Source: Promethearchaeota archaeon
Lineage (GTDB): Archaea; Asgardarchaeota; Lokiarchaeia; Sigyniarchaeales; SOKP01
Direction of reading: 5' to 3'
Assembly (NCBI GenBank): GCA_030606485.1
Contig: JAUWGH010000013.1
Span: 1 to 32,000 of the forward strand
Length of the DNA stretch: 32,000 bases
Positions 3,703 to 30,631 of this stretch are shown piece by piece; position 1 is the stretch's first letter, and every line of letters starts with the position of its first letter. The translations under genes were made by a program, and so were the position numbers. The notes beneath the pieces are model-generated. The model was not told the origin of the DNA. It searched no databases and saw only the letters and a list, made by a program, of their open reading frames with translations.

Positions 3703-5649
3703 ATGCTTAAAGATATTAGCGAAGATGAAAAGGAATTATATTTAGATGTCTTAAGAGAAGGAACTTTTACTCCTTTTGATAAATTTGTATCTCGCGGAGA
3801 TTTACCTGATGTAATTGATATTGCAAATCCAAGAAAAGAGATTGACAAAAATATTTTCCGAGCAATAAAACAAACAAATAGAGATAAATCAACTAGACTA
3901 ATCCCGATTTTAGGTAGCGCCGGAAGTGGAAAAACTCACGCATTTTGGGCTTATAAAGATAAAATTGGGCAAGTGGAAGAATTTGAAGTAGAAGGCTTAG
4001 AACCTATAAATTGGACAATTGTATACGTTCCCTCGCCTCCAGCAAGCGTTAGAGTATTATTTCATATTTATACATGTATTATAGAAGAATTAGGAGCAGA
4101 AGTTATAAAAACTGTTTCAGAAAAATTAGTAACCAAGTGGGGTGGAAAGAAAAGAGGATTTTTCAGTAGACCTAAAGCTGATGATGTTATTTCGCGTGGA
4201 ATAAGAGAATTTCCGGGTGTTGGTGCTGATATTGTCAAAGCATTAGTCTATTTTCGTTTAGAAAAAGATAAAAGAGCGTTTGCTGAACGCTGGTTACTTG
4301 GGGAAGATCTTGAAGATGATGAATTAGATGATTTAGGAATAAATAGTGTAATCGAGGATGATGACACTTGTTTGGCAATGATAAAAATAATTACAGAAAA
4401 TTTGGGAAAAGTAATTGTATTGTATTTTGATGAGATCGAATCTCCTTATAGGATGCATGGAGAGCTTGCTGAAAGGAAATTCTTAGAAGTATTAAAAAAG
4501 CAATATAATGAAGTTCAAAAATTAGTTATAGTGATTGCAGTTCTGAAAGAAATATGGCCACGTATATTGGAGATTGCCGACCAACCATTACGTTCTCGAA
4601 TGGAACCCGAACAAGAACTCAAACCATTTAGTTTAAATGATTTAAAACTTTTCTTTGCAAATACTATGGAGCATTATTGGGACCAGAATAATTTAAATCC
4701 ACCCCTATATCCGCTTTTTCCATTAAATGAGGAAGTAATAAATGTAATTTATGAAAAATCAGGGGGAAATCCAAGGGATGCAATTAAATTGTGCAATAGA
4801 TTTATTAATAAAATGATTAATAGGGAGATGTCTCTTGAAGAATTATCTTCACTGGAGGTAGATATTGTGGCTACAGCTCAACCTCCTTCAATCTCTGCAG
4901 ATACAGCAATAATTTCATCTAAAGTATCAGCAGCTCGTAAAAAAATTGAAGAAATATTTGACACCGAATATCTCATTAAAGTTAATCCAGCCTCAATAGC
5001 AGGAGCTGCGTTAAAAAGTATTATTGACTTAGGAGAAGTGAATAAAAAGGATTTTAATTATGAAATGGAATATAAATTTAAAATCGAGAAACGAGAATAC
5101 ACTATTGCTGCAATGATTGAATTCGGTATGAAAAAGTGGGGTTTGGAAATTCCATCTATAAAAACATTTGATCGAAGTGGAGGAGTGGCAGCATATTATG
5201 CTGCAAAAAGATTAAATGATGCTATTATTAATGGAGCAATAACGAATGGAATTTTAATTGTCCCTAGGGGAACAGCAGGGAAGAAATTTTCTTTAATTCT
5301 TGAAAGGGCACATGAAATTGTTAAGTTTGAGATAAATGATGAAGAAGGGGAGGAATTAATTCGTTCTGCTATGCGATATCCATCAAGGATTGGTTGGGAA
5401 ATGGCAAAAACAACATTCGAGCAAATTGAAGATTATTCTCCTCCAGAAGAGGAGAGTCTAACCGATACAATGGAGGAAAGATCTAAAATTGAAGAAGATT
5501 TCATCGAAATTAAGGATACTCCAACCGAAATCAAGGAGGATATGGTTAAAGAAACTCAAGAAGATAGTCTTGAAGAAGAAATAGAAGAAGAAAGTGGAGA
5601 ATCTATAGAAAACATTGAAGATAATAAAGATTTAGATGAACTTTTTTAG
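3703..5649 (+). CDS. AAA+ P-loop ATPase (BREX BrxC/BrxD/DUF2791-like) with C-terminal restriction-endonuclease-like domain and acidic tail
   Basis: Walker A GSAGSGKT, Walker B VLYFDEIE, R-finger PLRSRM, sensor-2 GGNPR, helical insert AERWLLGEDL. The last ~73 aa are very rich in Glu/Asp. Confidence 0.75.
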   Translation: MLKDISEDEKELYLDVLREGTFTPFDKFVSRGDLPDVIDIANPRKEIDKNIFRAIKQTNRDKSTRLIPILGSAGSGKTHAFWAYKDKIGQVEEFEVEGLEPINWTIVYVPSPPASVRVLFHIYTCIIEELGAEVIKTVSEKLVTKWGGKKRGFFSRPKADDVISRGIREFPGVGADIVKALVYFRLEKDKRAFAERWLLGEDLEDDELDDLGINSVIEDDDTCLAMIKIITENLGKVIVLYFDEIESPYRMHGELAERKFLEVLKKQYNEVQKLVIVIAVLKEIWPRILEIADQPLRSRMEPEQELKPFSLNDLKLFFANTMEHYWDQNNLNPPLYPLFPLNEEVINVIYEKSGGNPRDAIKLCNRFINKMINREMSLEELSSLEVDIVATAQPPSISADTAIISSKVSAARKKIEEIFDTEYLIKVNPASIAGAALKSIIDLGEVNKKDFNYEMEYKFKIEKREYTIAAMIEFGMKKWGLEIPSIKTFDRSGGVAAYYAAKRLNDAIINGAITNGILIVPRGTAGKKFSLILERAHEIVKFEINDEEGEELIRSAMRYPSRIGWEMAKTTFEQIEDYSPPEEESLTDTMEERSKIEEDFIEIKDTPTEIKEDMVKETQEDSLEEEIEEESGESIENIEDNKDLDELF

Positions 5650-6552
5650 CAAATTTTTAATTATCTCATCATTTTGTCTTATATTTTCAGAAAGGTTAGA
5701 GCATTTTTTACACAAATTAATTAATTCATTTAAATCTGTAATAATTAAATCATCATCGAGTTTTTCAGAGAGTTCTACAGCCTTATTGATGTGTTCTATC
5801 GCTTGTAAATAATATCCATCCTTTTTAAAATCAATTTCACTTAAGATATATTTTAAATTCTTATAAGCTTCATCTCGTTCCCTTAAATAAGTTGGATAAT
5901 TTTCAGCAGTTTTTGCCTTTTCCTCTAATACTTTATGAATTTCAAGTTCTTCTATTTTTTTTGCCAGTTCTGCTGCTTTTACATAATGTTTTTTAGCATT
6001 TTTATAATCCTGAGATTTAAATAATTCTTCCGCAATTTTAACTGATTGAGCAATCTCATCAGGAATGATCTCACCCAAATCAATTAAATTTCTTGCTTCT
6101 TGGATCCTTTCCTCATCCAGAAGATCCTTTATTCGTTCGTTAAGTTTTTCTCTAATTAATTTCGGTTCTTTTAATTTCTCATTTAATTCTATTCTTGAAT
6201 GGATAATCTCTTTTAAAAGGGATTTTAATTTTTCTTTATCTTTTGAAAAATTTTCCACGATTTTTACTTCAATTTCATCAAAAACTGCTATAAAAGAGTC
6301 AATAAATTCCCCGGATTTTGTAATTAAACCTAAATACAATGATAATTTTTCATCTAATTTAATTTCTTTTGAATAATATTTCAAATCATCCTGTGTATAA
6401 GTGACATAGTTCAAATCTGATTTTTTTAAATGATTATCGCCTAAGTTTTTTAAGATCTCTTTAGTTATTCCTATCTCCTTAATATAATATTCTGCCAAAA
6501 GATTAGGACCAAATGATTCGTCTATTTCATATAAAAAAATTCCAAGGGGCAT
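5632..6552 (-). CDS. Longin/uDENN-like N-terminal domain plus TPR-like helical region
   Basis: N-terminus GIFLYEIDESFGPNLLAEY (beta-beta-GP pattern of longin-like/uDENN domains), then helical repeats such as AEELFKSQDYKNAKKHYVKAAELA. Its 3' end overlaps the ATPase by 18 bp. Confidence 0.6.
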   Translation of the reverse strand: MPLGIFLYEIDESFGPNLLAEYYIKEIGITKEILKNLGDNHLKKSDLNYVTYTQDDLKYYSKEIKLDEKLSLYLGLITKSGEFIDSFIAVFDEIEVKIVENFSKDKEKLKSLLKEIIHSRIELNEKLKEPKLIREKLNERIKDLLDEERIQEARNLIDLGEIIPDEIAQSVKIAEELFKSQDYKNAKKHYVKAAELAKKIEELEIHKVLEEKAKTAENYPTYLRERDEAYKNLKYILSEIDFKKDGYYLQAIEHINKAVELSEKLDDDLIITDLNELINLCKKCSNLSENIRQNDEIIKNLLKKFI

Positions 6553-7170: not shown

Positions 7171-7956
7171 GTGGAATTATTAGAAAAATTAAATGAGAAG
7201 TTAGATATTTTATTAGCTTGGATAAAAACCCAATATGATAAGGCAGAAGATTTTCTCACGGATCACCGGAATGTGAAAATATCAATGATTATCACAGTAA
7301 TTGGTTATCATGCTTTATTAATTTTAGGTGTAATTATTGCCCAGTTTAATTCTAATTTTACAGCAATTGATGGATATAATATATGGGATAATTGGATAAG
7401 TGACCTTGGTGGGAGCACTTTTACTCCTATGCCTATTTTCTATGATTTAGCTGCTTGTTTAGCTGGAATATTAACAATACCTTTAACTTTTTTTATAGAA
7501 AAAAGTGTAGCGTCGGTTCCTTCTAAACTAGAAGAACTCCATCAATATTCTCGATGGAGATTTAGGTTTGCTAGTTATGGTTTCTTATTTGGACTTATTG
7601 GAAATGTTGGATATATATTTGTTGGGTTGTTTTCAGCAGACAGAAATTATTGGGGGCTCCATGGGATTGCAAGTATTTTATCTTTTGGAGGTTTTGTATT
7701 CGCTGGATTTTTCTTCGGTTTATGTATTGTATTTTATAAAACGAGCATTCCCAGAGAGTTTGGTATTTATATGATTATTGTACCCCCTTTAACGATGATA
7801 TTGTATCAGATATTGCCAGCATATACACCCATATCGGATCCATTTATGGAATGGATGTTGCTTTTTTCTATTCTTGCATGGGTAGATCCACTCTGTATAT
7901 ACACTATTAGACAGTTTAAAAAAGAGAAAATGCTTCAAAAAAAGTTAATTAAATAA
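7171..7956 (+). CDS. DUF998-family (Frag1/DRAM-like clan) multi-pass membrane protein
   Basis: GYNIWDNWISDLG signature, about 6 hydrophobic helices, conserved LH and EW. GTG start. Confidence 0.8.
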   Translation: MELLEKLNEKLDILLAWIKTQYDKAEDFLTDHRNVKISMIITVIGYHALLILGVIIAQFNSNFTAIDGYNIWDNWISDLGGSTFTPMPIFYDLAACLAGILTIPLTFFIEKSVASVPSKLEELHQYSRWRFRFASYGFLFGLIGNVGYIFVGLFSADRNYWGLHGIASILSFGGFVFAGFFFGLCIVFYKTSIPREFGIYMIIVPPLTMILYQILPAYTPISDPFMEWMLLFSILAWVDPLCIYTIRQFKKEKMLQKKLIK

Positions 7957-11739: not shown

Positions 11740-12966
11740 TTATATTTTTGTAGCAATGTAATCAATGATATCTAATACTTTCATATTTGTTTTTTCTTTT
11801 TTTACACTATCTGCTAAATTTCCAACGCAAAATGGACATTCTGTAAGCAATATATCTATACCAGACTCAACTGCCTCATCAATCCTATCTTTTGCAATAT
11901 CCAAAGCTAATTCAGGAAATTGACTTTTTACTCCACCTCCAGCGCCGCAACACCAGGCATTATTTCTATTTCGCCTTAATTCAATCATTTCTGTATTTGG
12001 TATTTTCACAATAACTTCTCGAGGTGGCTCGTAAAAATCCATATGCCGACCTAAATGACAAGGGTCATGATAGGCAACTTTTATTGCTTCTATATCCTTT
12101 TCAGGAATTTTTAAACTTCCATCGTTGATTAGATCTAAGAGAACTTCTGTAACATTAACAACTTCAAAAGGCAAATCTTGACCGAATATTTCAGGCCAGT
12201 CCTTTTTTAAAGTCCTATAACATCCTGCACATGCTACAAATACCTTTTTTGCACCAGTTTTTTTAATTTGCTCAAGATTGTGCTCAATATTCGGCTTTAC
12301 AGATTCAATATCACCAATACGTATTGCAATAGAACCACAACACCATTCATCTTCTATAACAGCAAATTCTTTTCCTGCCGAATTAAAAATTTTGGCTAGA
12401 TTTAATAAGGTTTCCTTTTGTCTTAGAGGTTCAGTACAGCCAGCATAAAAAGTGATATCCCCCATTTTAGAAACACCTTTAACATCATTGAGCCACTCAA
12501 ACTTTTTCGCTTTAGGTTCACCATAAGGATTTCGCATATCCGGATTATTCATATATTCAATTAATTTGGCATGTCGATCCAATGGTGCAAAACCTGCTTT
12601 AATTAAATCTTGCCTTAAAGCATGCCATACCTCTACATGATCAATCCATTTTGAAGTATTTAGAACAATATATGGATTATGCGTTTCATGACACGTGTCT
12701 GTACATGAACCGCATTCAGAACATTGATAAGCAAATTCTGCCAGCTCCTTACTCAAATCGAGGTTTCCTTCTAAAATACTTTTAAGAACATTCATTCTAC
12801 CTCGGGCAAACCAAATTTCAAAACCTTCTTCTCCTTTTGCTTCTTTTACAGGACAAACTAAATATCTCCCCACCGCTGGTCTTACGGCAAAACCACAATC
12901 ACCACACCCCATGCAGGACATTATGGCTTCCCATTGTTTTTTTAAATTTTCTATTTTGCTCATCAT
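11740..12966 (-). CDS. HdrD/GlpC-like Fe-S oxidoreductase (4Fe-4S dicluster plus 2 CCG domains)
   Basis: CMGCGDC...CP, CSECGSCTDTC, AGC...WCCGS...CAGC and HDPCH...WCCGAGGG...ECPFC motifs. Confidence 0.92.
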   Translation of the reverse strand: MMSKIENLKKQWEAIMSCMGCGDCGFAVRPAVGRYLVCPVKEAKGEEGFEIWFARGRMNVLKSILEGNLDLSKELAEFAYQCSECGSCTDTCHETHNPYIVLNTSKWIDHVEVWHALRQDLIKAGFAPLDRHAKLIEYMNNPDMRNPYGEPKAKKFEWLNDVKGVSKMGDITFYAGCTEPLRQKETLLNLAKIFNSAGKEFAVIEDEWCCGSIAIRIGDIESVKPNIEHNLEQIKKTGAKKVFVACAGCYRTLKKDWPEIFGQDLPFEVVNVTEVLLDLINDGSLKIPEKDIEAIKVAYHDPCHLGRHMDFYEPPREVIVKIPNTEMIELRRNRNNAWCCGAGGGVKSQFPELALDIAKDRIDEAVESGIDILLTECPFCVGNLADSVKKEKTNMKVLDIIDYIATKI

Positions 12967-14481
12967 TTAATCATCCTCCCAAAAATTAAATTTCCCACGA
13001 CTTAAAATCATGTGTGGATCGAGGGTTTTTTTAATAGATTTCATAAGGTTATAATATTCAGAAGTATAGGCGCCAATTTCAACCATAAGACGAGAGGGAA
13101 TGCTACCCATCATATAAAATTGGACTCCATGTTTTAAAACCAAGGTTAAAAATGATTTCCATAATTTAAGATTGATATCTTTGATAATTTCATGGTATTC
13201 TCCATCATGATAACAACCAAAAGTGGTAAATCCGCAAGTTAATTCTACATTATTACCATCAACCAATGGAACAACTCCAGTTCCACTAATTGGACGAAAT
13301 CCCGCTATTTTCTCGATTTTTTTCATGTTTTCTTCATTTTCCATATCCCATACTTCGATATCTTTGAGAATTTTAGGAAAAGAATTTATTGGTGTAAAGC
13401 ATTCCGTGGTAATATTTTCAAAAGCAGGTATAATCCCCCAGCAATTATGATATGTCTGCCATTGTCCTTCGGTATAGTGCCATTTGGCAAAATTCCCATT
13501 AGACATTTCTGGACCTAAATCTTCACACTTTTTATTCAAAAAAATTTTATCTAGTTGTTTTACTTTTTCTTCTAATTCTTGTTCAGAATTTGCTTCTACG
13601 ACATAAAAGACTATACCCCTTTTTCTTTTTAGATGCTCAAACATTGGATACATTCCGAATGTATTAGTGCCAAGTTTTATGAGGATTTCATCAATATACA
13701 TGGCGTCATAAACATCTATTCCTTTTTGTCTTATTTCAGTATAAATTTGAGCAACAACGTCAGCTGAATTCCGCGGACACAAGAATGTTTTATAATTCGC
13801 AAAGGGAGGTTTTGGAAATACTTGTAAGGAAACCTTAGTTTTAACACCATAAATTCCGTTATCTCCACAAAATAGTCCTGCCAGATCAGGCCCGTTGCCA
13901 AATCTGTTGAAGGGAAACTTTGAAAATTTATTTGCTTGAGATCCTGTCTCAATTATTTCACCTGTGGGAAGGACTACTTCCAAAGAGACGAGTTGGTTTG
14001 TGCAAGCTCCATATTTAGCGCACCCACCAGCACCCACAGAGTGATGAGAGATTCCACCACCAATTGAAGCAGTTAAACCACTTCCTGGACCCATACAACC
14101 AGTATAAAGTCCAAACCGAGATAAATATTCATTTAATTTTCCCCATGAAATTCCAGCCTCTACCGTGCAAATAAGATTCTCTTCATCGAGATTCACGACA
14201 TTATCCATTCTTTTCATATCTAAGATAATTCCAACATCTCCAGTTGCTATACTTCCTCCCCATTCACAATCTCCACCACCACGTGGTATAACGGGAATAT
14301 TTTCTTCATTGGCCACTTTTAGGATTTCTGATATTTCCTTAGCATCTTTTGGTCTAACTACATATTCTGGAACGCCTTGTAAATCCGGATGTACATTACG
14401 ACTGTAAGCATGGCGCACGTAAATATCATCGGAAGCAAATTTTTGAGAAACAATATTTTGTAATTTTTGTATTAAAGTCAT
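12967..14481 (-). CDS. FAD-binding oxidoreductase, VAO/PCMH superfamily (GlcD/D-lactate dehydrogenase-like)
   Basis: VVRP...IPVIPRGGG, ILDMKRM, VEAG, LEVVLPTGEII, GPDL.GLF and terminal KKTLDPHMILSRGK motifs. Abuts the Fe-S gene. Confidence 0.92.
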   Translation of the reverse strand: MTLIQKLQNIVSQKFASDDIYVRHAYSRNVHPDLQGVPEYVVRPKDAKEISEILKVANEENIPVIPRGGGDCEWGGSIATGDVGIILDMKRMDNVVNLDEENLICTVEAGISWGKLNEYLSRFGLYTGCMGPGSGLTASIGGGISHHSVGAGGCAKYGACTNQLVSLEVVLPTGEIIETGSQANKFSKFPFNRFGNGPDLAGLFCGDNGIYGVKTKVSLQVFPKPPFANYKTFLCPRNSADVVAQIYTEIRQKGIDVYDAMYIDEILIKLGTNTFGMYPMFEHLKRKRGIVFYVVEANSEQELEEKVKQLDKIFLNKKCEDLGPEMSNGNFAKWHYTEGQWQTYHNCWGIIPAFENITTECFTPINSFPKILKDIEVWDMENEENMKKIEKIAGFRPISGTGVVPLVDGNNVELTCGFTTFGCYHDGEYHEIIKDINLKLWKSFLTLVLKHGVQFYMMGSIPSRLMVEIGAYTSEYYNLMKSIKKTLDPHMILSRGKFNFWEDD

Positions 14482-17466: not shown

Positions 17467-18333
17467 ATGAAAGGAAAATCAATTATTGAAGTTCTATTAG
17501 TTTATATTTGCATTTCTTTGATTTCTTGGGTTCTACGTGCATTATTAGCCGATTTATTTATTTTAGAAATTGAAATTTTAGGCTGGAGTTATATTGGAGG
17601 TACCATTCAAATTTTGATTACATTATTTATTCTACTAATAATAAAAGGAGATTTTAAATCGTATGGAATCACAAAAATGGGCTGGAAATTTAGCCTTGAT
17701 ATTGGTTTAACAAGTTGGTTAGTCATATTAATTCCAATTGGAGTTCTTATGGTATTCCAATTAAATTATATGGGGTTTTTAGATGCAATAATTTTAGCTG
17801 GATGTGAAGCTATTGCTATAGTGTTGATTCTTTTGATCATTAGAGGGCGTAATATAGAAGATTATGAAATAGACTCATCAAAATCCCGAATAAACGTTAT
17901 ATTTATTGTTTTTTTATTATTATTTCCTATTTTTTTAGGTCTTTTCTTCAATAAATCTCCAAATATAATGCTAAAAATTATTTCAACAGTAATTTGGCAA
18001 TTTATTTTTTCTGGATTCGGTGAGGAACTTCGTTATAGAGGATATTATCTATCAAGAATAAATGAAGAGTTTGGAAGACCTTACGAATTACTTGGTGTAA
18101 AATTTGGTCTTGGGCTAATTTTATCTTCTCTTTTATTCGGACTCAGCCATGTCTTAAATCCATTTAGTCCTTTTGAAGGAAAATTTGAATTTGCATGGTG
18201 GTGGGGTTTGTGGACATTTTTTGCAGGGTTATTCTTTGGATTTTTAAAAGAAAAGACAAATAATATAATAGCACCAGGTATAGCTCATGGTTCTGATGCT
18301 ATAGGAGAAGCGCTAAATTTAATTTTTTCTTAA
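17467..18333 (+). CDS. CPBP (CAAX protease/Abi, Rce1-like) intramembrane metalloprotease
   Basis: GEELRYRGY, FGLSH and IAHG motifs in a multi-TM protein. Confidence 0.92.
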   Translation: MKGKSIIEVLLVYICISLISWVLRALLADLFILEIEILGWSYIGGTIQILITLFILLIIKGDFKSYGITKMGWKFSLDIGLTSWLVILIPIGVLMVFQLNYMGFLDAIILAGCEAIAIVLILLIIRGRNIEDYEIDSSKSRINVIFIVFLLLFPIFLGLFFNKSPNIMLKIISTVIWQFIFSGFGEELRYRGYYLSRINEEFGRPYELLGVKFGLGLILSSLLFGLSHVLNPFSPFEGKFEFAWWWGLWTFFAGLFFGFLKEKTNNIIAPGIAHGSDAIGEALNLIFS

Positions 18334-21341: not shown

Positions 21342-22022
21342 ATGGTAAGAATTGAAGAGGATGGCCGAATACACATAAAAGTTTTATACTGGGGAATGGC
21401 TGGTTCTGGTAAAACTACTATTGTAGATACTTTACATCGTCTTACAAAAGAACAAAAATTAGATATGACACCCAAGGGAGAATTAAAAAAAATAGATATG
21501 GCAAATGGTTCTACTTTATACTTTGATAGAGGGATTTTTCAATCCACAAAAACCCCTAAGATTTTTTACCATATTTATACAGTTGCAGGTCAAACTCAAT
21601 TCTCTCCGTTAAGAAAGACGGTATTCGAAGGAACAGATGGAGTACTTTTCGTTGTGGATTCTCAAACTTTTCTTTTTGAAGATAATATTGAATCATTAAA
21701 AGAATTAAAAAAAGTAGCTCAAGGAGATTTAATAAAAGAAATTCCCATGGTTGTAATGCTTAATAAGAAGGACTTAGATGAAACAATTGGTGCCAGTGAA
21801 TTTGAGCATATTTTAAAAGAAGAAGGATTATGGTATTCTCCCCCTAATAAATTATCTCTATGGAATCCTATTATTTTTGAGACTTGTGCATTATATGATT
21901 TAAAAAGGGATATATATCGGAGTTTTTATGAATGTGCTAGAAGAACAGCACTATATCACATATATGGAAATGGAACCGCACCTATTGATGATGAATTTTT
22001 AAAAAAGTATGATAAAAAATAA
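21342..22022 (+). CDS. MglA-like (Arf/Sar-related) small GTPase
   Basis: G1 GMAGSGKTT, G2 STLYFD, MglA-type G3 YTVAGQ, DGVLFVVDSQ, G4 NKKD, G5 TCA. Confidence 0.88.
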   Translation: MVRIEEDGRIHIKVLYWGMAGSGKTTIVDTLHRLTKEQKLDMTPKGELKKIDMANGSTLYFDRGIFQSTKTPKIFYHIYTVAGQTQFSPLRKTVFEGTDGVLFVVDSQTFLFEDNIESLKELKKVAQGDLIKEIPMVVMLNKKDLDETIGASEFEHILKEEGLWYSPPNKLSLWNPIIFETCALYDLKRDIYRSFYECARRTALYHIYGNGTAPIDDEFLKKYDKK

Positions 22023-22219: not shown

Positions 22220-22720
22220 ATGAACTTCCAGGAATTACTTGAGCAAATGCCTGATATTTTTGAAAAGGTTAAAGATGATGTTCGAAGAGTGGTAGGACAT
22301 CATAGGGCAGGTTTAAGTTTGGGATTGGTAGATATGGGTATGTTCAAAGGAAATTTTATCGGTGGAATGTTTTTTCCTGGTGGGACAATGATTCTAATGA
22401 ATAGAACCCCTTTAAAAATAATAATTACAGAACAACCAAATAATATCGTGTGGGCATATACTTATCATATCCTATTGCACGAATATATTCATTCGTTAGG
22501 TGTTTTTGATGAACACGCCTGTCGAACAATTACCCGTGAGATTACTGAAAAAACTTTTAGTAATCTTTCACATCCAGCGGTTGTTTTAGCAAGACGTGGG
22601 TTAGGGACCTATTTTCCTAATTTACATTTAATATATGCACCCTCTGATATAGACACGAGTGAGATGGAGATTGAATACGTAAAGGGTTTTGATAGAGAAA
22701 GTCAAACTTATTTTGCTTAA
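22220..22720 (+). CDS. Small zincin-like HExxH metalloprotein
   Basis: HILLHEYIHSLGVFDE: HExxH followed by a downstream Glu. 166 aa. Confidence 0.7.
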   Translation: MNFQELLEQMPDIFEKVKDDVRRVVGHHRAGLSLGLVDMGMFKGNFIGGMFFPGGTMILMNRTPLKIIITEQPNNIVWAYTYHILLHEYIHSLGVFDEHACRTITREITEKTFSNLSHPAVVLARRGLGTYFPNLHLIYAPSDIDTSEMEIEYVKGFDRESQTYFA

Positions 22721-23151: not shown

Positions 23152-24642
23152 ATGAGTTACAAAAAACCTGATAATAAAGATTTGGAGGCTATGATTGGGA
23201 TTGTAGGTAAAAATTACGCAACCGCAAACGATGCAATCTGTGCGTCCTATCTTAGTAAAAGCGTTATGGGACTCGAGGCTCAAATCCCTGACATCGTTAT
23301 TCGTCCAAAATACCCTGAAGAAATTAGAAAAATTCTTGTCTATTGTTCTCAAGAGAAGATTCCAGTGTCGCCCATATCTGGAGGATTATCTGGAGGGTTC
23401 GCATGCCCATTAATAAGACCCGGAGGCGTTGTATTAGATTTAAGTAGAATGGATCGTATAATAGAAATTGATACCGAAAATAGAATTGCAATAATTGAAC
23501 CCGGAGTAACACTCGGTCAATTATGGGCATATATGCATAAGCACACCCCAGAATATTGCCCTCCCATTCCCGATGGAGCTCCTCCTTCATCAACCGTTAT
23601 GGGAGATGCAATTGATAGAGGGTTCTCTTTAGTCACCTCATCCATGGGGCCTCAAGGAGATATATTCATGTGCGCAGAAGTAGTCATTCCAAGAGGTGAT
23701 ATACTCTATACAGGTTCGTGGGCTCTCCCTACAGCAAAACCATTTTATAAATATGGTATAGGACCAGATCTGTGGTCTACCTTAATGGGCTCACAAGGAA
23801 CTATGGGGGTCATCACAAAAGTAGCAATTAAAATCTTTCCCCATCCAGAACATAAGACTGTTGTGGTTTGGGGCATGAGTAACCCACAGGATATGCAAAA
23901 TTTAACATGGCAAATTGGAAATCAAGAATTTGGAATTGCACATCACTGTGTTATGGTTCAAGGTGGAAATTATCCACTTGTAATGACGCGCTGGCCTAAA
24001 GAGAAAGTTCCTCATGATTACGAATTTTACAAAGAAATTGGATTTTCTAAGTGGTGGATGAATTTTGAAGTCTGGGCACAAACTCAAGAAGAATTAGAAT
24101 ATACTGAAAAAAGAATCGATGAATTTGCTAAAAAATTTATGGAATCTAAAGAATGCAAAGATCCGAAATCTATAAAAAAACAAGAATTACATCCAAAACA
24201 AATTGCCAGTAGATTAAAGAAACCTAACAAAATTGCAATTCCATATGGCTACTGGGAAGCTGGATTTCTCTTCATAACCTGGTATACGCCATGGAAAGAT
24301 TGTGCGGAATTTGCTGAAATGTACACTAAGGTCCTTGAAGATCATGGTATTGCACCGGTAATGTGGATTGCAAGCGTTGAAAGATGTAGACAAGCTATTT
24401 GTATGCCAATAATTTGCTTTGACTCAACGAAACAAGAAGATTTTGAAAAAGTACAAGAAATTAATCGTATCACCACTGAATATTCCATTAAAAGAGGTTG
24501 GTTAAATTATCGACCGGATCCTTACATCCATGCACCAATGATGTATTCTCAAGCAGGTACATATTTGAAATATTTAAGAGAGGTTAAGAAAATGTTTGAT
24601 CCTAATTTTATAATGCATCCAGGGAGGTTAATGCTTCCATAA
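23152..24642 (+). CDS. FAD-binding oxidoreductase, VAO/PCMH superfamily (PchF-like features)
   Basis: VVLDLSRMDRIIEID, IEPGVTLGQL, GDAIDRG, YKYGIGPD, GWLNYR and KMFDPNFIMHPGR motifs. Confidence 0.9.
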   Translation: MSYKKPDNKDLEAMIGIVGKNYATANDAICASYLSKSVMGLEAQIPDIVIRPKYPEEIRKILVYCSQEKIPVSPISGGLSGGFACPLIRPGGVVLDLSRMDRIIEIDTENRIAIIEPGVTLGQLWAYMHKHTPEYCPPIPDGAPPSSTVMGDAIDRGFSLVTSSMGPQGDIFMCAEVVIPRGDILYTGSWALPTAKPFYKYGIGPDLWSTLMGSQGTMGVITKVAIKIFPHPEHKTVVVWGMSNPQDMQNLTWQIGNQEFGIAHHCVMVQGGNYPLVMTRWPKEKVPHDYEFYKEIGFSKWWMNFEVWAQTQEELEYTEKRIDEFAKKFMESKECKDPKSIKKQELHPKQIASRLKKPNKIAIPYGYWEAGFLFITWYTPWKDCAEFAEMYTKVLEDHGIAPVMWIASVERCRQAICMPIICFDSTKQEDFEKVQEINRITTEYSIKRGWLNYRPDPYIHAPMMYSQAGTYLKYLREVKKMFDPNFIMHPGRLMLP

Positions 24643-24668
24643 ATGGAAGGAAAAGGAGGTTAATAGAT

Positions 24669-25976
24669 ATGGAAAGATTAGAAGTAATGAAAAAAGAACT
24701 TTATCGTTGTATTCATTGCAAGGCGTGTAAATTTACATATAGTGGAGATCCAAGCAGAGATGGAGTAGGAGAACATAAAGGAGTCCTATATGAAGGCATG
24801 GTTCCGAGCTGTCCAAGTGGTTTAGAATATGGCTGGGAGAGTTTTTGGAATGCCGGAAGAATGTGGATTGCTCGTTGTATTTTGGAAGGAGATTTAGAGT
24901 TTTCGGAAAATGTCCGTGATACGATAATGCAATGCATAACTTGTGGGATGTGTGAAGTCCAGTGTGAAAATAAGGTTCCATGCGTTGATATTATTGAATC
25001 ATTACGGGCAGCTTGTTATTTTTCTGGAGTGCCTCTTATCGAGAAACACGAATTAGTCTCAAAATTCGTAGTAGAAAGAAATAATCCTTATGGTGGAGAT
25101 AAAGACAAAAGATTTGAATGGGTAAAAGAAAATGGGCTTGAAGAATACTTAGACAAAAAAGGTGCCAAAATTGCTTATTATGTAGGTTGCACTGCAAGTT
25201 ATAGGCAAATAAATATTGCGGTCGCTACTTGTAAAATTTTTAAAAGATTAGGTATTGATTTTGCGTTGGTCACAAAAGAAGTTTGCTGCGGTAGCCCATT
25301 CTTTAGGATTGGAAGAACCGATATTTCGCAAGATTTAATGAATACAAACCTTGAACTTTTTAAAAAATATGAAATGGTTTTATTTTCTTGCGCTGGCTGC
25401 TATCGAACCTTTACAGTGGACTATCCGAAATGGATTAAAAAAGAATTACCCTTTAAAACAAATCATGCTTTTGAGTTAATTTCAGATATGGTGAAAGATG
25501 GAAAAATTAAATTTAAAGAAAATCCAGAATTAAGAGGAAAAGTAGTCACATATCACGATCCTTGCCATACTGGTCGTCATTTTTTCATTGATGCTCAGAG
25601 AAAAATTATTGATGAGTCTAAGAATTTAATATTTGACTTAAGAAAGATTAATAAATGGAAAGAGGAATGGTTTGAGAAGCCTAGAATCATAATTCGTGCA
25701 TTACCCGGTGTTAAATTTAAGGAGATGTACAGAATTCATGAGAATTCGTTCTGTTGTGGAGCAGGTGGTGGAGTTAGAGCGGGATATCCTGATTTCAGTT
25801 TAAAAACAGCAAGTTTAAGGCTTGATGAAGCTGAAGCCGTTGGTGCTGATATTATGTTAACGGAGTGTCCATTCTGTTGGAGGAATCTAGATGATGCAAA
25901 CACAATGTTCAATCACGGCATACCAGTTTATGGCATTTTAGAATTAATTGACAAATATGATTTAATTGCAGATTAA
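24669..25976 (+). CDS. HdrD/GlpC-like Fe-S oxidoreductase (4Fe-4S dicluster plus 2 CCG domains)
   Basis: CIHCKAC...CP, CITCGMCEVQC, VGC...CCGSP...CAGC and HDPCH...CCGAGGG...ECPFC motifs. GGAGG SD upstream. Confidence 0.92.
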   Translation: MERLEVMKKELYRCIHCKACKFTYSGDPSRDGVGEHKGVLYEGMVPSCPSGLEYGWESFWNAGRMWIARCILEGDLEFSENVRDTIMQCITCGMCEVQCENKVPCVDIIESLRAACYFSGVPLIEKHELVSKFVVERNNPYGGDKDKRFEWVKENGLEEYLDKKGAKIAYYVGCTASYRQINIAVATCKIFKRLGIDFALVTKEVCCGSPFFRIGRTDISQDLMNTNLELFKKYEMVLFSCAGCYRTFTVDYPKWIKKELPFKTNHAFELISDMVKDGKIKFKENPELRGKVVTYHDPCHTGRHFFIDAQRKIIDESKNLIFDLRKINKWKEEWFEKPRIIIRALPGVKFKEMYRIHENSFCCGAGGGVRAGYPDFSLKTASLRLDEAEAVGADIMLTECPFCWRNLDDANTMFNHGIPVYGILELIDKYDLIAD

Positions 25977-26200: not shown

Positions 26201-29200
26201 TTGGTTGAGCACAAAAACATGGCAGAGGTAAAAGATAATTCAGCATATCCGTATGTATCGGTATTCAAAAAGAAACCTTTTAGGTCATTTACTTTTGCCA
26301 TAGAGGAAGATATAGGGAATTTTTTTATACCAGATTATAATAAGATCGTAGAATTTTACAGATATTTTGAAAAAAATTTATTAAATTTTAAAAATCTGAA
26401 TTTAGAGAATATATATTGGTTTCTTTTATTGGGGAAATATTTGAGGGAAGATATATCCATAAATCTCAAAAAGATCATTAATTTCATAACAGGATGTGAA
26501 ATTTTTGAAGAAAATTCCCTAGGATTTAAGTTCTCTCCTGAATCTAAACAGAGAAAACCCGATAATTGGTCAACCTTTTTTGCTTTAGCCAGTTTAAATT
26601 TATTAGGACAATTAGATGCTTATTTGTCTACACATCCAAGAGAAAATATAAAAGAAAAGATTATTAATTTTATTTTTAAGACCAGAGATAAAGGGCGTTT
26701 TGTTCATTGTTTAAACAAAAATTGTACAATTTGCCAAAAAACAACGCCTATTAGAACAAGTTTTTTCGTAATAGAAGCATTAATTCTTCTAGATTTTGAT
26801 ATCAAATTACAACAAAATGTGTTTTTAAAATATTTTAATGATTTAAAAAAGAAATATTCTATAATATTTCAATTACTGAGTCTTAAATATTTTGATTTAA
26901 TTTCTGATATCGAGACTAAACACTTAAAATATTTACACCAATTTCAACAAAATGATGGTGGTTTTAGTTTTAAGGAAAATATTGGAAAAATTAATGAAAC
27001 ATTTTGGATTATTTATGTTTTGGAAAACTATTCCTGGTTGCTTGATTACAATCGTGGAAGGATTTATTCTTTTCTCTCAACGAAAATCAAAGGCTTAAAT
27101 CATGATTATAATTCATTTAATACCTTGAAATTGATGGATATTTCGAAAATTATTTTAATGTGCTCATTTATTTGGTCTAAATTTATTGAAGAAGTTGAGA
27201 GAACCGCTTTTAGACATTTGGATATAAATACTTCTTTAGACTTAAATATTTTGAAAAAAGAGTTAGGAATAAATGAGGGAATACCAGAAATTCTTAGATA
27301 TATTAATCAGAAATATAACTTTAATTTAGAGATTTTAGATAATGAAATTGAATTTAATAATTATTTAAGAAATTTAACTCGAGAAAATGCATATTTAGCT
27401 AAATCAGTATATGCGTCGATAAAAAATAATAGCGTCATCTATTTAAATAAACTTCTGAATGACTATAAATACAATTACCCAAATAAGTCAAAAAAAATTA
27501 GGGATTTGATCCTTCTAATAGAAGATTTAATTTCGCACAACTTTTTCCAAGGTCGAATTCTTCGGAAAAACATGATTTTTTTTAGTAAATATTATTTATA
27601 TAAAGACAAATTTATTTATGAAGTAATTAGAATTGATTCTGATATAAATAGCGAAGAAATAATTAATGAAAAATTTAAATTGGAGGAAATCAAAACAGAT
27701 ATTTATAATATTATAATTAAATTAAAAGATACGCCAAAAAAGATTAAAGAAGAGATTAAAAGCCTAATACTTGTAAATGAATTCGACTTAGCAAAAGAAA
27801 GGTTAAAATATAATGTTAAAAATGCTTTAATGGAAGCCGATTTTTTAAATGAAAATATTGAAAATTCCTTTTCTACAGATTTTAAATACATAAATCCAAA
27901 TTATCAGTTATCTAATGAGATAGTAGAATGGAACAAGAATTATTCGGAAATTCGAGGCAAGTATTTTAATTTACAAAATTATTTTAATGAAATTTTCAAG
28001 GAAAAAGAAAATTTAAAAAATTTCAAATTAATTTTGAATAAATTGGAAGACATAATTGACAAAAATGAACAAAAGATCTATTCTTTAATTGATCACTTTA
28101 AAAACTTATTTAGAGAATCCCTAGAGAAATCATATTCCAATGAAATTGTCCAACAATTATTAAAAGTATGCGAACATCTTAATTCAGAAATTATGAAATT
28201 AGATACGCAAATCTATGAAATATCACATAAAATTACTTCTAAAGAAAAATCCATTCAAAAAGTGCAAAAGAAGGTCATCTCAAAATGGATATCAATTAAA
28301 GAAGATGCAGATACGTTTATTGATTATTTCCTAGAAGGATTTAAGATTTATGAAAATGATAAAAATGAAATGAATGAAATAGAACAAAGTACTTCTATGA
28401 TGATTAATGAACTCAAAAACACAGTTGATTTAATTTTAAAAGAAAAGAAATATCAACTGGCACTGGAAATTATTGAAGAGAAAACTGAGAAGCATTTAAA
28501 TGAAAAATTAGAATTAGTTAAAAATTCTCAATCGAAGTTAAAGGAAAATATGAAGAGTAAGAGAAAACTTTTTCTACTTCTAAAAAAAATTCAAGAGGAT
28601 TGGAATAATTTAGAGCAAAAAATAATTGCGAAAATTGATAATTATCGAAATTCTATTGAAGAGAAAGTTATTCAAGAACGCGAACTTGAGAAATTAAAAG
28701 AATTTGACTATTTTATAAAAAGCAATATTTCTATTTTAAAAGAACAAATAAGAAAGAAAGAAAATGAATGTGAGAAAGATTTAAATTATCAAAAACTTAA
28801 AATCAACAATTTAAAATCTCGAATTGATAAACTTTCTAAAGAGTATTCAGATCTCAACGAAAAAGTTAAAAATAAAGTAAAACAACTTACTAAAATTGTA
28901 GTGGATTTTCAAGAGAAATCAAAGTTATGTATGTTATCATGGAATAAATTCCTAGATCTATTTAAAAATAATTTGAATGATTTAAAAAATAAATATACAA
29001 ACGAAATTATTAAACAAGAGATTCTGTCAACTAGCTCACAATCAAAAACAAATCTCATAAAACTAGATGATTTAAAGAAAAAATTGAATCTTAAATGTAA
29101 TGTTTTAATAGAAAGAATTAATGAAATGATAGAAATTACAAAATTAGACGGAGAATTGGATGAAAATGACAAAGAACTTCTTGTTCACACTGATGATTAT

Positions 29201-30631
29201 TATAAGAATAAACAATTGCGAAATTTTATTGAAAAACAAATAGAGAAATTAGGAAATGATTTCGGAAAATTAGTATCTCTATATGAATCTGCAATAAAAA
29301 ATAAATCTCTTAAAGTTAATATTTTAGAAATTCAAAATAGAATAGAAGATTTTAATACACGGCAATTAAATTTAGAAAGAAGTTACCAAAATGAAATTTT
29401 AAAAATTGGTATAAATATAAATAGAGATGATTTCTTAGCGAATAGAAATTTTTTCAATACTGAACTTAATAGATATAGAGATATTATTGATGAAATTAAC
29501 AAAAATACAATACTTTTTAATCAACTTATTAATTTCATCGGTGGAGTATTCAACTCTCTAAGAATCCAATTACGGGAATTAAATAAATCCTTTCAAGATG
29601 AAGCTGAAAAAATAAATGATTATGAGAAACTTTTAAATAATTTTAGCGGAAAAATCTTGAAATTATCTGAAACTATGAGAGTTTCTTTCAATAAAAATGA
29701 GCAAGAAATTAGCACCACGATGATCCAGAATGAAAGTTTAAAAATATTAAATTCTGAAATTCGAGAAGAGCTCGTTTTTAATAAAAATTTATTTAATAAA
29801 GAATTTGAAGAATTTAAGGAAAATGTATCAAAAAAATTAAACTTGATTAAAAATGACGCTTTAAAAGAGAATTTAATGCATTTTATAAATAGAAACCAGG
29901 TTCTACTTAATCAAATGCTAGGATCCTTAGAACGAAAAGTTGAAGATAAATTAGAAATTAAAGATTTTAAATCTACAAGTATTATGGTTCAAAGAAGGGT
30001 TAAGAAAATACGTGAAAAATTAAAATATATTGAAAATGAAACATCTAAACTTAAAAAAGAATTCAAAAAAGCATCTCCTACATTCAATACAAAAAATAAA
30101 TTTCTTTTTGATGATTTCAAACATTTTCTGCATGAGTATGATGAGATAATTAATGAGAAAATTAAAAAATTAGAGCAATTAATTCTAAAAAGCTATGTTG
30201 AAATTGTTATTAAAGCGGTAAAAGACGAATATATAACAATATCTTTTTTGGCGCACGAACTAAAAAATAAAAAAGATAAGATTCAAACATATATTATAAA
30301 TATGATTGGTGCTAATGAATTACCTGGAAAATATGACCCTGAACTTCAGATTTATTTTGAAAATCTTGAGATTATTGATAATCTAAACCCGGCTCAGCTA
30401 AAAGTAATTAAAACTACTAATTTTAAACTCTATGAATTTCTTAACCGGTTACGTTTTTTTACCAGTCAATATAGTTCCATACTTACTTTTATTGCCGCAA
30501 TTTTCACAATAACATTATCCCTTTATAATTTATCTGGGGGAAATCCATTAACAGTAATAATTCCTCTCTCTATTGCGATATTAATTACCTTATATCTTTT
30601 ATTAAGAAAGCAAAAAGAAGAGAAAATATGA
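26201..30631 (+). CDS. Giant protein: prenyltransferase-beta/squalene-cyclase-like repeats, PCI-like winged helices, coiled coils and C-terminal 2-TM anchor
   Basis: Repeats IINFITGC...GFKFSP...STFFALASLNLLG and LHQFQQNDGGF...ETFWIIYVL; wHTH-like LIEDLISHNFFQGRI, INEMIEITKLDGELD and IINMIGANELPGKYD; long K/E/N/L-rich helical stretches; hydrophobic hairpin at aa ~1427-1467. Likely start is ATG 26219. Confidence 0.7.
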   Translation: MVEHKNMAEVKDNSAYPYVSVFKKKPFRSFTFAIEEDIGNFFIPDYNKIVEFYRYFEKNLLNFKNLNLENIYWFLLLGKYLREDISINLKKIINFITGCEIFEENSLGFKFSPESKQRKPDNWSTFFALASLNLLGQLDAYLSTHPRENIKEKIINFIFKTRDKGRFVHCLNKNCTICQKTTPIRTSFFVIEALILLDFDIKLQQNVFLKYFNDLKKKYSIIFQLLSLKYFDLISDIETKHLKYLHQFQQNDGGFSFKENIGKINETFWIIYVLENYSWLLDYNRGRIYSFLSTKIKGLNHDYNSFNTLKLMDISKIILMCSFIWSKFIEEVERTAFRHLDINTSLDLNILKKELGINEGIPEILRYINQKYNFNLEILDNEIEFNNYLRNLTRENAYLAKSVYASIKNNSVIYLNKLLNDYKYNYPNKSKKIRDLILLIEDLISHNFFQGRILRKNMIFFSKYYLYKDKFIYEVIRIDSDINSEEIINEKFKLEEIKTDIYNIIIKLKDTPKKIKEEIKSLILVNEFDLAKERLKYNVKNALMEADFLNENIENSFSTDFKYINPNYQLSNEIVEWNKNYSEIRGKYFNLQNYFNEIFKEKENLKNFKLILNKLEDIIDKNEQKIYSLIDHFKNLFRESLEKSYSNEIVQQLLKVCEHLNSEIMKLDTQIYEISHKITSKEKSIQKVQKKVISKWISIKEDADTFIDYFLEGFKIYENDKNEMNEIEQSTSMMINELKNTVDLILKEKKYQLALEIIEEKTEKHLNEKLELVKNSQSKLKENMKSKRKLFLLLKKIQEDWNNLEQKIIAKIDNYRNSIEEKVIQERELEKLKEFDYFIKSNISILKEQIRKKENECEKDLNYQKLKINNLKSRIDKLSKEYSDLNEKVKNKVKQLTKIVVDFQEKSKLCMLSWNKFLDLFKNNLNDLKNKYTNEIIKQEILSTSSQSKTNLIKLDDLKKKLNLKCNVLIERINEMIEITKLDGELDENDKELLVHTDDYYKNKQLRNFIEKQIEKLGNDFGKLVSLYESAIKNKSLKVNILEIQNRIEDFNTRQLNLERSYQNEILKIGININRDDFLANRNFFNTELNRYRDIIDEINKNTILFNQLINFIGGVFNSLRIQLRELNKSFQDEAEKINDYEKLLNNFSGKILKLSETMRVSFNKNEQEISTTMIQNESLKILNSEIREELVFNKNLFNKEFEEFKENVSKKLNLIKNDALKENLMHFINRNQVLLNQMLGSLERKVEDKLEIKDFKSTSIMVQRRVKKIREKLKYIENETSKLKKEFKKASPTFNTKNKFLFDDFKHFLHEYDEIINEKIKKLEQLILKSYVEIVIKAVKDEYITISFLAHELKNKKDKIQTYIINMIGANELPGKYDPELQIYFENLEIIDNLNPAQLKVIKTTNFKLYEFLNRLRFFTSQYSSILTFIAAIFTITLSLYNLSGGNPLTVIIPLSIAILITLYLLLRKQKEEKI

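Follow-up and report, generated by a model that had tools for sequence, protein, structure and literature searches.

The stretch of DNA analysed here, hereafter the window, comprises 32,000 nucleotides (positions 1 to 32,000, forward strand) of contig JAUWGH010000013.1 from the assembly GCA_030606485.1 of a Promethearchaeota archaeon, which GTDB places in the class Lokiarchaeia. A single uninterrupted open reading frame (ORF) of 1,476 codons with a TTG start occupies positions 26201-30631 (+) and encodes a very long protein, predicted to consist of a prenyltransferase-like head, two helical rods with winged helices and a C-terminal membrane hairpin. An ATG at 26219, preceded by an AT-rich spacer of 240 bp, corresponds to residue 7 (residue numbers throughout count from the TTG at 26201). 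Because the N-termini of close homologs align to residue 7 and the nearest homologs are 1,470 amino acids (aa) long, the product most likely has 1,470 aa as well; the coding sequence is placed at 26219-30631 (+), where the match of the genome search also lies. The G+C content of the ORF is 23%, against 30-34% in the surrounding DNA, which fits a protein rich in Lys, Asn, Ile, Leu and Glu.

The structure was predicted with AlphaFold2 in two overlapping pieces, aa 7-640 (from an 80-sequence alignment) and aa 560-1476 (model B). The first model has a mean predicted local distance difference test (pLDDT) of 87.9 and a predicted template modelling score (pTM) of 0.81. The second has a pLDDT of 82.4 and a pTM of 0.38, as expected for an elongated chain of several domains. 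The protein opens with a peptide of nearly invariant alignment columns (aa 7-36, 26219-26308 (+)), with the core motif AYPY-[IV]-[ST]-x-FKK-x-PF, which is modelled as disordered (model residues 1-17 have a pLDDT below 50). In its strict form the motif has no other copy in the genome, where three short loose matches occur in unrelated frames. Being near-invariant, disordered and confined to the family protein within the genome, the peptide has the hallmarks of a docking peptide and is treated as a candidate for one.

The peptide is followed by an alpha/alpha toroid at aa 42-327 (26324-27181 (+)) that resembles the beta subunit of protein prenyltransferases. Superposed on rat RabGGTase beta (1dce_B), it gives a VIA Z score of 22.0 with a root-mean-square deviation (rmsd) of 2.7 Å over 257 of about 285 residues at 15% identity, and the correspondence is nearly one to one (model residues 36-320 onto 1dce_B 16-303). 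Scores against the beta subunits of GGTase-I and FTase are Z 20-21.8, those against terpene cyclases about Z 15 and those against other toroids below Z 14. The 21 top-ranked Foldseek matches of the head are all prenyltransferase beta chains (E from 1.9e-4, probability 1.00 each), and RabGGT beta is also its best match among PDB profiles (E 2e-4). The Pfam family Prenyltrans (PF00432) falls just below threshold (E 6e-6, 26.3 bits against a cut-off of 26.5), and a precomputed PF00432 match is present on most homologs. In a search of the ESM Atlas by shape, bacterial prenyltransferase-repeat proteins reached template modelling scores of 0.70-0.71, compared with 0.66 for eukaryotic GGTase-II beta; since the bacterial proteins fit equally well, the head is not specifically eukaryote-like. 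A stand-alone toroid of the same type is encoded elsewhere, by a gene for a 388-aa Prenyltrans protein (Pfam E 3e-30) directly downstream of an ORF in which an actin C-terminal region is fused to double zinc ribbons (locus L003, 1-2367; G000:C10:616475-618841).

Protein prenyltransferases bind zinc through three residues: an Asp and a Cys that closely follow the fifth GGF turn, and a His of the last repeat. Among 82 sequences of the family, no Cys or His is conserved within aa 181-335. Residues 263 and 265, which we take to correspond to the Asp and Cys ligands of the enzymes (from the FW motif and the structural range), are variable and stand four and six residues ahead of the invariant F268-W269. 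As judged from the alignment, the canonical Asp/Cys/His triad is absent from the family. Another putative metal site, F-x-H-C-x4-C-x2-C, is present at aa 167-180 (26699-26740 (+)), in the loop that the second GGF-type turn of the toroid leads into, where the model shows a beta-hairpin and then the start of a helix. H169, C170 and C175 are invariant (82/82 sequences), and position 178 is Cys in 65, Asp in 10 and His in 5, so that one of these three residues is found there in 80/82. Because such replacements are of the kind seen for metal ligands, the motif is likely a zinc site, and most simply a structural one. A preliminary description of this DNA, made from the letters alone, had placed a toroid like that of prenyltransferase beta subunits at aa ~45-310, had seen in it no obvious DxC...H zinc triad and had reported an inserted HCx4Cx2C motif; all three observations hold under the analyses above.

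Beyond the toroid, two tandem winged-helix-like units, WH1a (aa 343-382) and WH1b (aa 383-480), are modelled with a pLDDT of 87-95 (27227-27640 (+)). The remainder of the protein consists largely of two rods, each ending in a further winged helix. Rod 1 (aa 484-948, 27650-29044 (+)) contains four spectrin-like three-helix repeats and is followed by WH2 (aa 949-997, 29045-29191 (+)); rod 2 (aa 998-1340, 29192-30220 (+)) contains three such repeats and is followed by WH3 (aa 1341-1390, 30221-30370 (+)). The repeats were recognised from a long-short-long pattern of helices, whose lengths in the model alternate between about 62-78 and 29-36 residues, and from VIA superpositions. In repeats of the spectrin type, the last helix of one bundle continues into the first helix of the next. 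Matches to the rods, led in searches independent of Foldseek by tandem spectrin and plakin repeats, include plectin SR7-8 (Z 13.4, 215 residues), four repeats of desmoplakin (Z 12.8), alpha-spectrin R15-17 (Z 12.1, rmsd 5.8 Å, 305 residues aligned) and beta-spectrin R14-16 (307-309 residues aligned). The first repeat of rod 1 includes the best conserved stretch of the protein, aa 481-570, and as it is modelled in one chain with the head at high pTM, we suggest that it is part of the head unit.

Rod 2 appears to duplicate the last three repeats of rod 1. Profile alignment of aa 640-1000 with aa 1030-1392 by hhalign gave a probability of 95.9% (E 5.4e-9, 286 columns), from which two modules, each of three repeats and a winged helix, are best explained by an old tandem duplication. 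The relationship is visible at the level of the module only, comparisons of single repeats being weak (34% at most). Between the winged helices, WH2 and WH3 align with a probability of 82% (E 1e-5), and WH2 and WH1b with 55% only. A relationship of the rods to SMC or Rad50 was considered and rejected, as the NCBIfam SMC model scores 13 bits against a cut-off of 567.

WH3 is followed by short juxtamembrane helices of low confidence (aa 1391-1423, 30371-30469 (+); model B residues 831-864, pLDDT 45-57). The coding sequence then ends with a predicted membrane hairpin, a basic tail and the stop codon (30470-30631 (+)). The hairpin is made of two hydrophobic helices, aa 1424-1444 and 1449-1470 (helices H866-885 and H890-911 of model B), with hydropathies of 1.8 and 2.6 over 19 residues. 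They are linked by an SGGNP turn, in which GGNP is conserved, with basic residues ahead of them and a six-residue basic tail behind. This arrangement recurs in 81 of 82 full-length relatives, in nine of them as one merged hydrophobic window, and the exception is a truncated sequence. Apart from the buried last helix of the toroid, these are the sole consistent hydrophobic segments, and neither a signal peptide nor an N-terminal hydrophobic segment was found in the protein. The lack of a signal peptide, the Cys-rich metal site in the head and the basic flanks together place the N-terminal part of 1,420 residues in the cytoplasm, and since the protein ends six residues after the second membrane helix, its C-terminus would return to the cytoplasmic side. 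The hairpin with its basic tail, the missing signal peptide and the cytoplasmic orientation had likewise been anticipated in the preliminary description.

The protein defines a family of unusual uniformity. A word-indexed search retrieved about 99 homolog clusters, and every named one derives from an Asgard metagenome-assembled genome (labelled Loki-, Promethearchaeota and similar). Nearly all full-length members have 1,460-1,504 aa and are 37-40% identical to the query over 98-100% of its length. Their alignment is nearly free of insertions and deletions, and conservation is even along the entire protein, with peaks at aa 481-570, 1021-1050 and 1321-1410. In its own genome (3.75 Mb) the gene is single-copy, and a full-length hidden Markov model detected no paralog among all ORFs of at least 150 aa. 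A profile of the first 635 residues was compared with 301 Asgard genomes. It matched 65 of the 68 genomes of the GTDB family to which the window belongs, 5 of the 7 genomes of a sister family in the same order and the single genome of a third family in the class. The closed genome G210 (4.4 Mb) has an ortholog at C1:2787677. Outside the class, no credible member was found in about 220 Asgard genomes, where only three partial matches (E ~1e-6) occurred. The family is thus, on the evidence of these profiles, present once per genome in almost all Lokiarchaeia and specific to that class. In some genomes of the same family, a second and shorter frame of about 1,240-1,250 aa also matches the head profile (G144:C2:170254-171732, G258:C1:43140-44654, G270:C161:21963-22886).

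An exhaustive HMMER search with the C-terminal 915 positions against 1.84 billion representative proteins (E <= 0.001) gave 106 matches, mostly full-length members of the family or fragments of them, judging from their lengths and the ranges aligned; among the roughly ten that were checked individually, none was a named relative from eukaryotes or bacteria. A few matches of 1,230-1,355 aa also bear a Prenyltrans head, and the three with a source name (P0187 and P0190 among them) are labelled Helarchaeota. A weak match of 964 aa (E 2.6e-5) is a VWA-domain protein and was rejected as a member. A search of shorter proteins with aa 1-480 for stand-alone heads returned only two fragments cut at contig ends, and a feature search of the ESM Atlas returned only the protein's own cluster of 192 members.

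We tentatively favour, as the function that we infer from this anatomy, a non-enzymatic linker or spacer of the cytoplasm that is anchored in the membrane and binds a partner through its head. The C-terminal hairpin would fix the protein in the membrane with both of its ends in the cytoplasm. From the membrane outward, a rod of three and then a rod of four spectrin-like triple-helix repeats would follow, each capped by a PCI-like winged helix. At the far end would stand a compact head composed of the toroid, the first two winged helices and the first repeat, with the flexible conserved peptide ahead of it. Given the loss of the catalytic Asp/Cys/His zinc site, the toroid is most likely a binding module and not a prenyltransferase enzyme. 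A partner, which could be either a protein or a ligand bearing an isoprenoid, may thereby be kept by the head or the N-terminal peptide at a defined distance from the membrane. The preliminary description had proposed that the distal head may bind isoprenoid lipids or prenyl groups. A spectrin repeat measures about 5 nm; fully extended, the rods would therefore reach tens of nanometres, about 35 nm for seven repeats. Alternatively, the protein may belong to a membrane-associated skeleton; on both readings nesprin, spectrin and the bacterial protein EzrA would offer a comparison in principle.

Several points weigh against such a linker. With a pTM of 0.38 for aa 560-1476, the geometry between domains is not fixed by the models, and the extended form of the rod is an assumption. 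The Pfam family Spectrin (PF00435) had no match in the genome at E <= 0.01, nor in the Pfam scans of the protein and of family members, and Z scores of 12-13 lie within the range that generic helical bundles reach, according to the aligner's own caution; the rods are for these reasons described as spectrin-like in architecture and not as members of the spectrin family. AlphaFold folds a single chain on itself, so that intermolecular coiled coils could be missed. Strict conservation of the His-Cys3 motif at a GGF-type loop of the toroid, together with even conservation over 1,470 aa, could equally indicate an enzyme or a machine with several partners.

If the protein were an enzyme, it would be one tethered to the membrane, in which the relocated His-Cys3 metal site activates a thiol or binds diphosphate and an isoprenoid is transferred or cyclised, in protein prenylation or on an archaeal lipid precursor, while the rods position or regulate the head. 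The closest folds of the head are indeed all isoprenoid enzymes, and geranylgeranyl diphosphate is made in bulk by archaea. To the invariance of H169, C170 and C175 can be added that C178 is replaced by other metal ligands in 15 of its 17 exceptions, and that, by the register of the repeats, its spacing after the GGF-type turn is presumably that of the catalytic Cys of prenyltransferases, in another repeat. We nevertheless regard catalysis as unlikely. The canonical triad is gone and Pfam Prenyltrans is only at threshold. The alpha subunit is not in evidence either: matches to PPTA in the organism's own genome are below threshold only (23 bits against 29.5), and similar ones occur in 4 of 14 control genomes. 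Archaeal Rab-like GTPases are without C-terminal cysteines (PMC4915359), and about 1,100 residues of conserved rod would be hard to account for in an enzyme.

The winged helices suggest a different role, that of a PCI-type assembly platform. WH2 and WH3, perhaps with the first pair, would dock winged-helix or MPN proteins and nucleate a membrane complex in the manner of the proteasome lid, CSN or eIF3, or as DDRGK1 does for UFL1 at the endoplasmic reticulum. For aa 560-1476, PCI subunits (CSN2, lid subunits and eIF3) fill nearly all of the first 20 places in Foldseek (E 0.006-0.03) and prevail among its top matches in general, though at E 0.006-0.1 only. WH3 with the last helices superposes on CSN2 (9efq_B) with Z 9.9 and an rmsd of 4.7 Å over 122 residues, the WH2 region (model residues 289-439) on the proteasome-lid chain 8usc_Y with Z 9.4 over 106 residues, and WH2 also on DDRGK1 (8c0d_E) with Z 9.3 and an rmsd of 1.5 Å over 60 residues; matches to the winged helix alone have this rmsd over 60-62 residues. 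At E < 0.01, Pfam PCI matches WH3 in 20 of 38 members (best E 9.4e-5), WH2 in 3 and the WH1 pair in none; WH3, together with what surrounds it, ranks among the best conserved regions. Genes for Prok-JAB and the proteasome are also found 7-9 kb downstream in three related loci.

Against a platform of this kind, the PCI scores stand at threshold. Pfam PCI (PF01399), which covers aa 923-993 at WH2, reaches 23.7 bits for the whole protein with a cut-off of 22, single stretches in the genome scan reach 22.1 and 21.0 bits, and the same model also matches in 4 of 14 control genomes without PCI complexes. True PCI proteins have a TPR-like solenoid, which the helical part here is not. Genes on the opposite strand stand between the gene and those for JAB and the proteasome, which are not adjacent to it and keep this synteny within one family only. 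A PCI-type platform is in our view distinctly unlikely. The term 'PCI-like winged helix' is fair for WH2 and WH3, and membership of the PCI family is weakly supported. Of the PCI-like winged helices that the preliminary description had put at aa 330-450, 935-1000 and 1330-1390, the positions are close to those of the models (aa 345-380, 381-478, 952-995 and 1344-1386); their assignment to PCI has weak support, with Pfam at threshold and Z of 9-10, and the first pair has no PCI signal. Better PCI-domain matches occur in two other long ORFs of the same genome, of 795 aa (G000:C1:448993-449844 (-); 41.6 bits with a second stretch) and 986 aa (G000:C10:343644-343775 (+); 26.4 bits), which are not relatives by the C-terminal profile.

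A golgin-like tether was suggested by the same description, which had seen long coiled coils between the winged helices. In such a tether the helical regions would pair in parallel as a homodimeric coiled coil, holding the head well away from the membrane to capture vesicles or another membrane. The C-terminus does resemble a tail anchor, the helical regions are very long and free of proline (none in aa 566-1293), and the head could bind isoprenoid lipid, a constituent of archaeal membranes. The long helical spacers are borne out by the models, but as tandem antiparallel three-helix bundles and not as extended two-stranded coils: the helices break with confidence at conserved positions, fold back into bundles with pLDDT 75-93 and align to multi-repeat fragments of spectrin. 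Both sequence and length are, with almost no insertions or deletions, far more conserved than in typical coiled-coil tethers. The helical stretches are thus better read as monomeric spectrin-like bundles, predicted to number four and three as the result of internal duplication, than as golgin-type dimers; the golgin analogy is not borne out, and we consider a dimeric tether highly unlikely. A role of the four winged helices in tethering DNA or RNA to the membrane is scarcely probable, since, common as winged helices are among nucleic-acid binders and basic as WH1b with its long beta wing (mean net charge +8) and the membrane-proximal repeat SR7 (+6.7) may be, WH2 (+1.2) and WH3 (-0.7) are near neutral, WH1a is acidic and the closest structural matches are protein-protein winged helices of the PCI type.

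The membrane-anchored linker has its closest functional analogies in the nesprins, KASH proteins of eukaryotes, and in EzrA of Firmicutes (PMC4243239), which likewise combine a rod, made of three-helix bundles in a row and joined through continuous helices, with a transmembrane anchor at one end and a module for binding at the opposite end. In sequence the protein is unrelated to spectrin-repeat proteins, for which Pfam Spectrin finds nothing. Nesprins have a single transmembrane segment with a luminal KASH peptide and a CH-domain head, whereas here the anchor is a hairpin, the C-terminus is predicted to be cytoplasmic and there is no KASH arrangement. EzrA is anchored by its N-terminus and forms arches; the lokiarchaeal protein has a C-terminal hairpin, winged helices between its rods and a toroid head. 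With the prenyltransferase beta subunits (RabGGTase/GGTase-II and -III, GGTase-I, FTase) it shares the toroid of GGF-type hairpin repeats. It differs from them in having no conserved Asp/Cys/His triad and an extra His-Cys3 motif in another repeat, in that no alpha subunit was found, and in the membrane anchor and the further 1,150 or so residues to which the head is fused. PCI proteins (lid Rpn3/5/6/7/9/12, CSN1-4/7/8, eIF3a/c/e/k/l/m) and DDRGK1 likewise place a winged helix after packed helices. Here, spectrin-like bundles and not a TPR-like solenoid precede the winged helix, the domain occurs twice in one membrane protein, the scores are marginal, and neither an MPN partner nor a PCI horseshoe is known. 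Golgins and other tail-anchored tethers are also long helical proteins of the cytoplasm, held in the membrane by the C-terminus and binding at the distal end, but the present protein is predicted to form monomeric folded-back bundles, its anchor is a hairpin and its sequence and length are tightly conserved.

The gene lies downstream of a GlcD-like FAD_binding_4 gene and a CCG/Fer4 gene, and is followed by a B12-radical-SAM gene on the other strand. Related genomes retain the FAD/CCG pair, with a DEAD helicase downstream in most of them; this recurrence is seen only within the family, and at a distant Helarchaeota locus no neighbour is in common. Conservation of the neighbours is treated here as synteny by descent. 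A functional call based on an operon was rejected because the neighbours differ between families, and for the same reason the protein looks self-contained, without an operon partner. The window contains two separate pairs of FAD_binding_4 (GlcD-like) and CCG/Fer4 (GlcF-like) genes, at 11740-14481 (-) and 23152-25976 (+). The second, directly upstream of the gene for the rod protein, is syntenic in the related genomes L008 and L009. In four related loci, the ortholog is preceded at a distance of about 200 bp, on its own strand, by an ORF of 185-236 aa with no Pfam match (L009:7160-7801, L001:9146-9799, L008:7183-7740, L011:7133-7843); one query did not find it in the genome of the window.

Other genes of the window are recorded as observations in their own right. 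An Arf-family small GTPase of 226 aa (Pfam Arf, E 1e-15) is encoded at 21342-22022 (+), about 4 kb upstream, and is followed by a 166-aa ORF without a Pfam match (22220-22720). An Rce1-like membrane protein of the CPBP/CAAX-protease family (17467-18333 (+), E 2.5e-15) is encoded in the same window as the prenyltransferase-like head, and in L001 another gene of this family is found at a distance of about 10 kb from the ortholog; such proteins being widespread among prokaryotes, no link is claimed. Three sizeable ORFs have no Pfam match at E <= 1e-5: 3703-5649 (+) of 648 aa, 5632-6552 (-) of 306 aa and 7171-7956 (+) of 261 aa. This DNA occurs in cold-seep and marine-sediment metagenomes; no RNA data set was listed among the public runs that contain it.

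The preliminary description knew of no account of such an architecture, and we found none in the literature searched, which covered prenyltransferases, PCI proteins, spectrin, prenylation, cell biology and structural proteomes of Asgard archaea. In recent structure-based surveys of Asgard proteins this architecture goes unmentioned, as do spectrin, PCI and toroid proteins. Lokiarchaeum has been stated to lack prenyltransferases and CAAX targets (PMC4917890), and only generic folds like that of GGTase beta have been noted in archaea (PMC4915359). Each of the folds is known; their combination, and its near-universal single-copy presence in one class of Asgard archaea, is undescribed as far as these searches reach.

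Among Asgard archaea, the cultured cells that have been studied best are those of Lokiarchaeia; they have actin filaments and long membrane protrusions, and to our knowledge almost nothing is known of what links their membrane to internal structures. A nearly universal single-copy protein of 1,470 residues and near-fixed length, predicted to form a membrane-anchored rod with a specialised head, is a good candidate for a structural element of these cells. It might even be, although we hold this to be unlikely, a core subunit of a membrane skeleton or membrane-cytoskeleton linker specific to Lokiarchaeia. Such a spectrin- or nesprin-like rod, anchored by its hairpin, would be an invention or an inheritance of archaea closely related to eukaryotes; it would use its degenerate prenyltransferase ring and N-terminal docking peptide to hold a cytoskeletal or membrane partner at a fixed distance, and would help to shape the cell body and its long protrusions. 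The folds of the protein are ones that serve in eukaryotes to build membrane skeletons (spectrin-type repeats), to assemble complexes (PCI winged helices) and to anchor lipids (the prenyltransferase toroid), and in it a toroid of the prenyltransferase type appears to have been recruited to a non-catalytic role. If it turned out to have enzymatic activity, the protein would be relevant to the question of whether protein lipidation of any kind is older than the eukaryotes.

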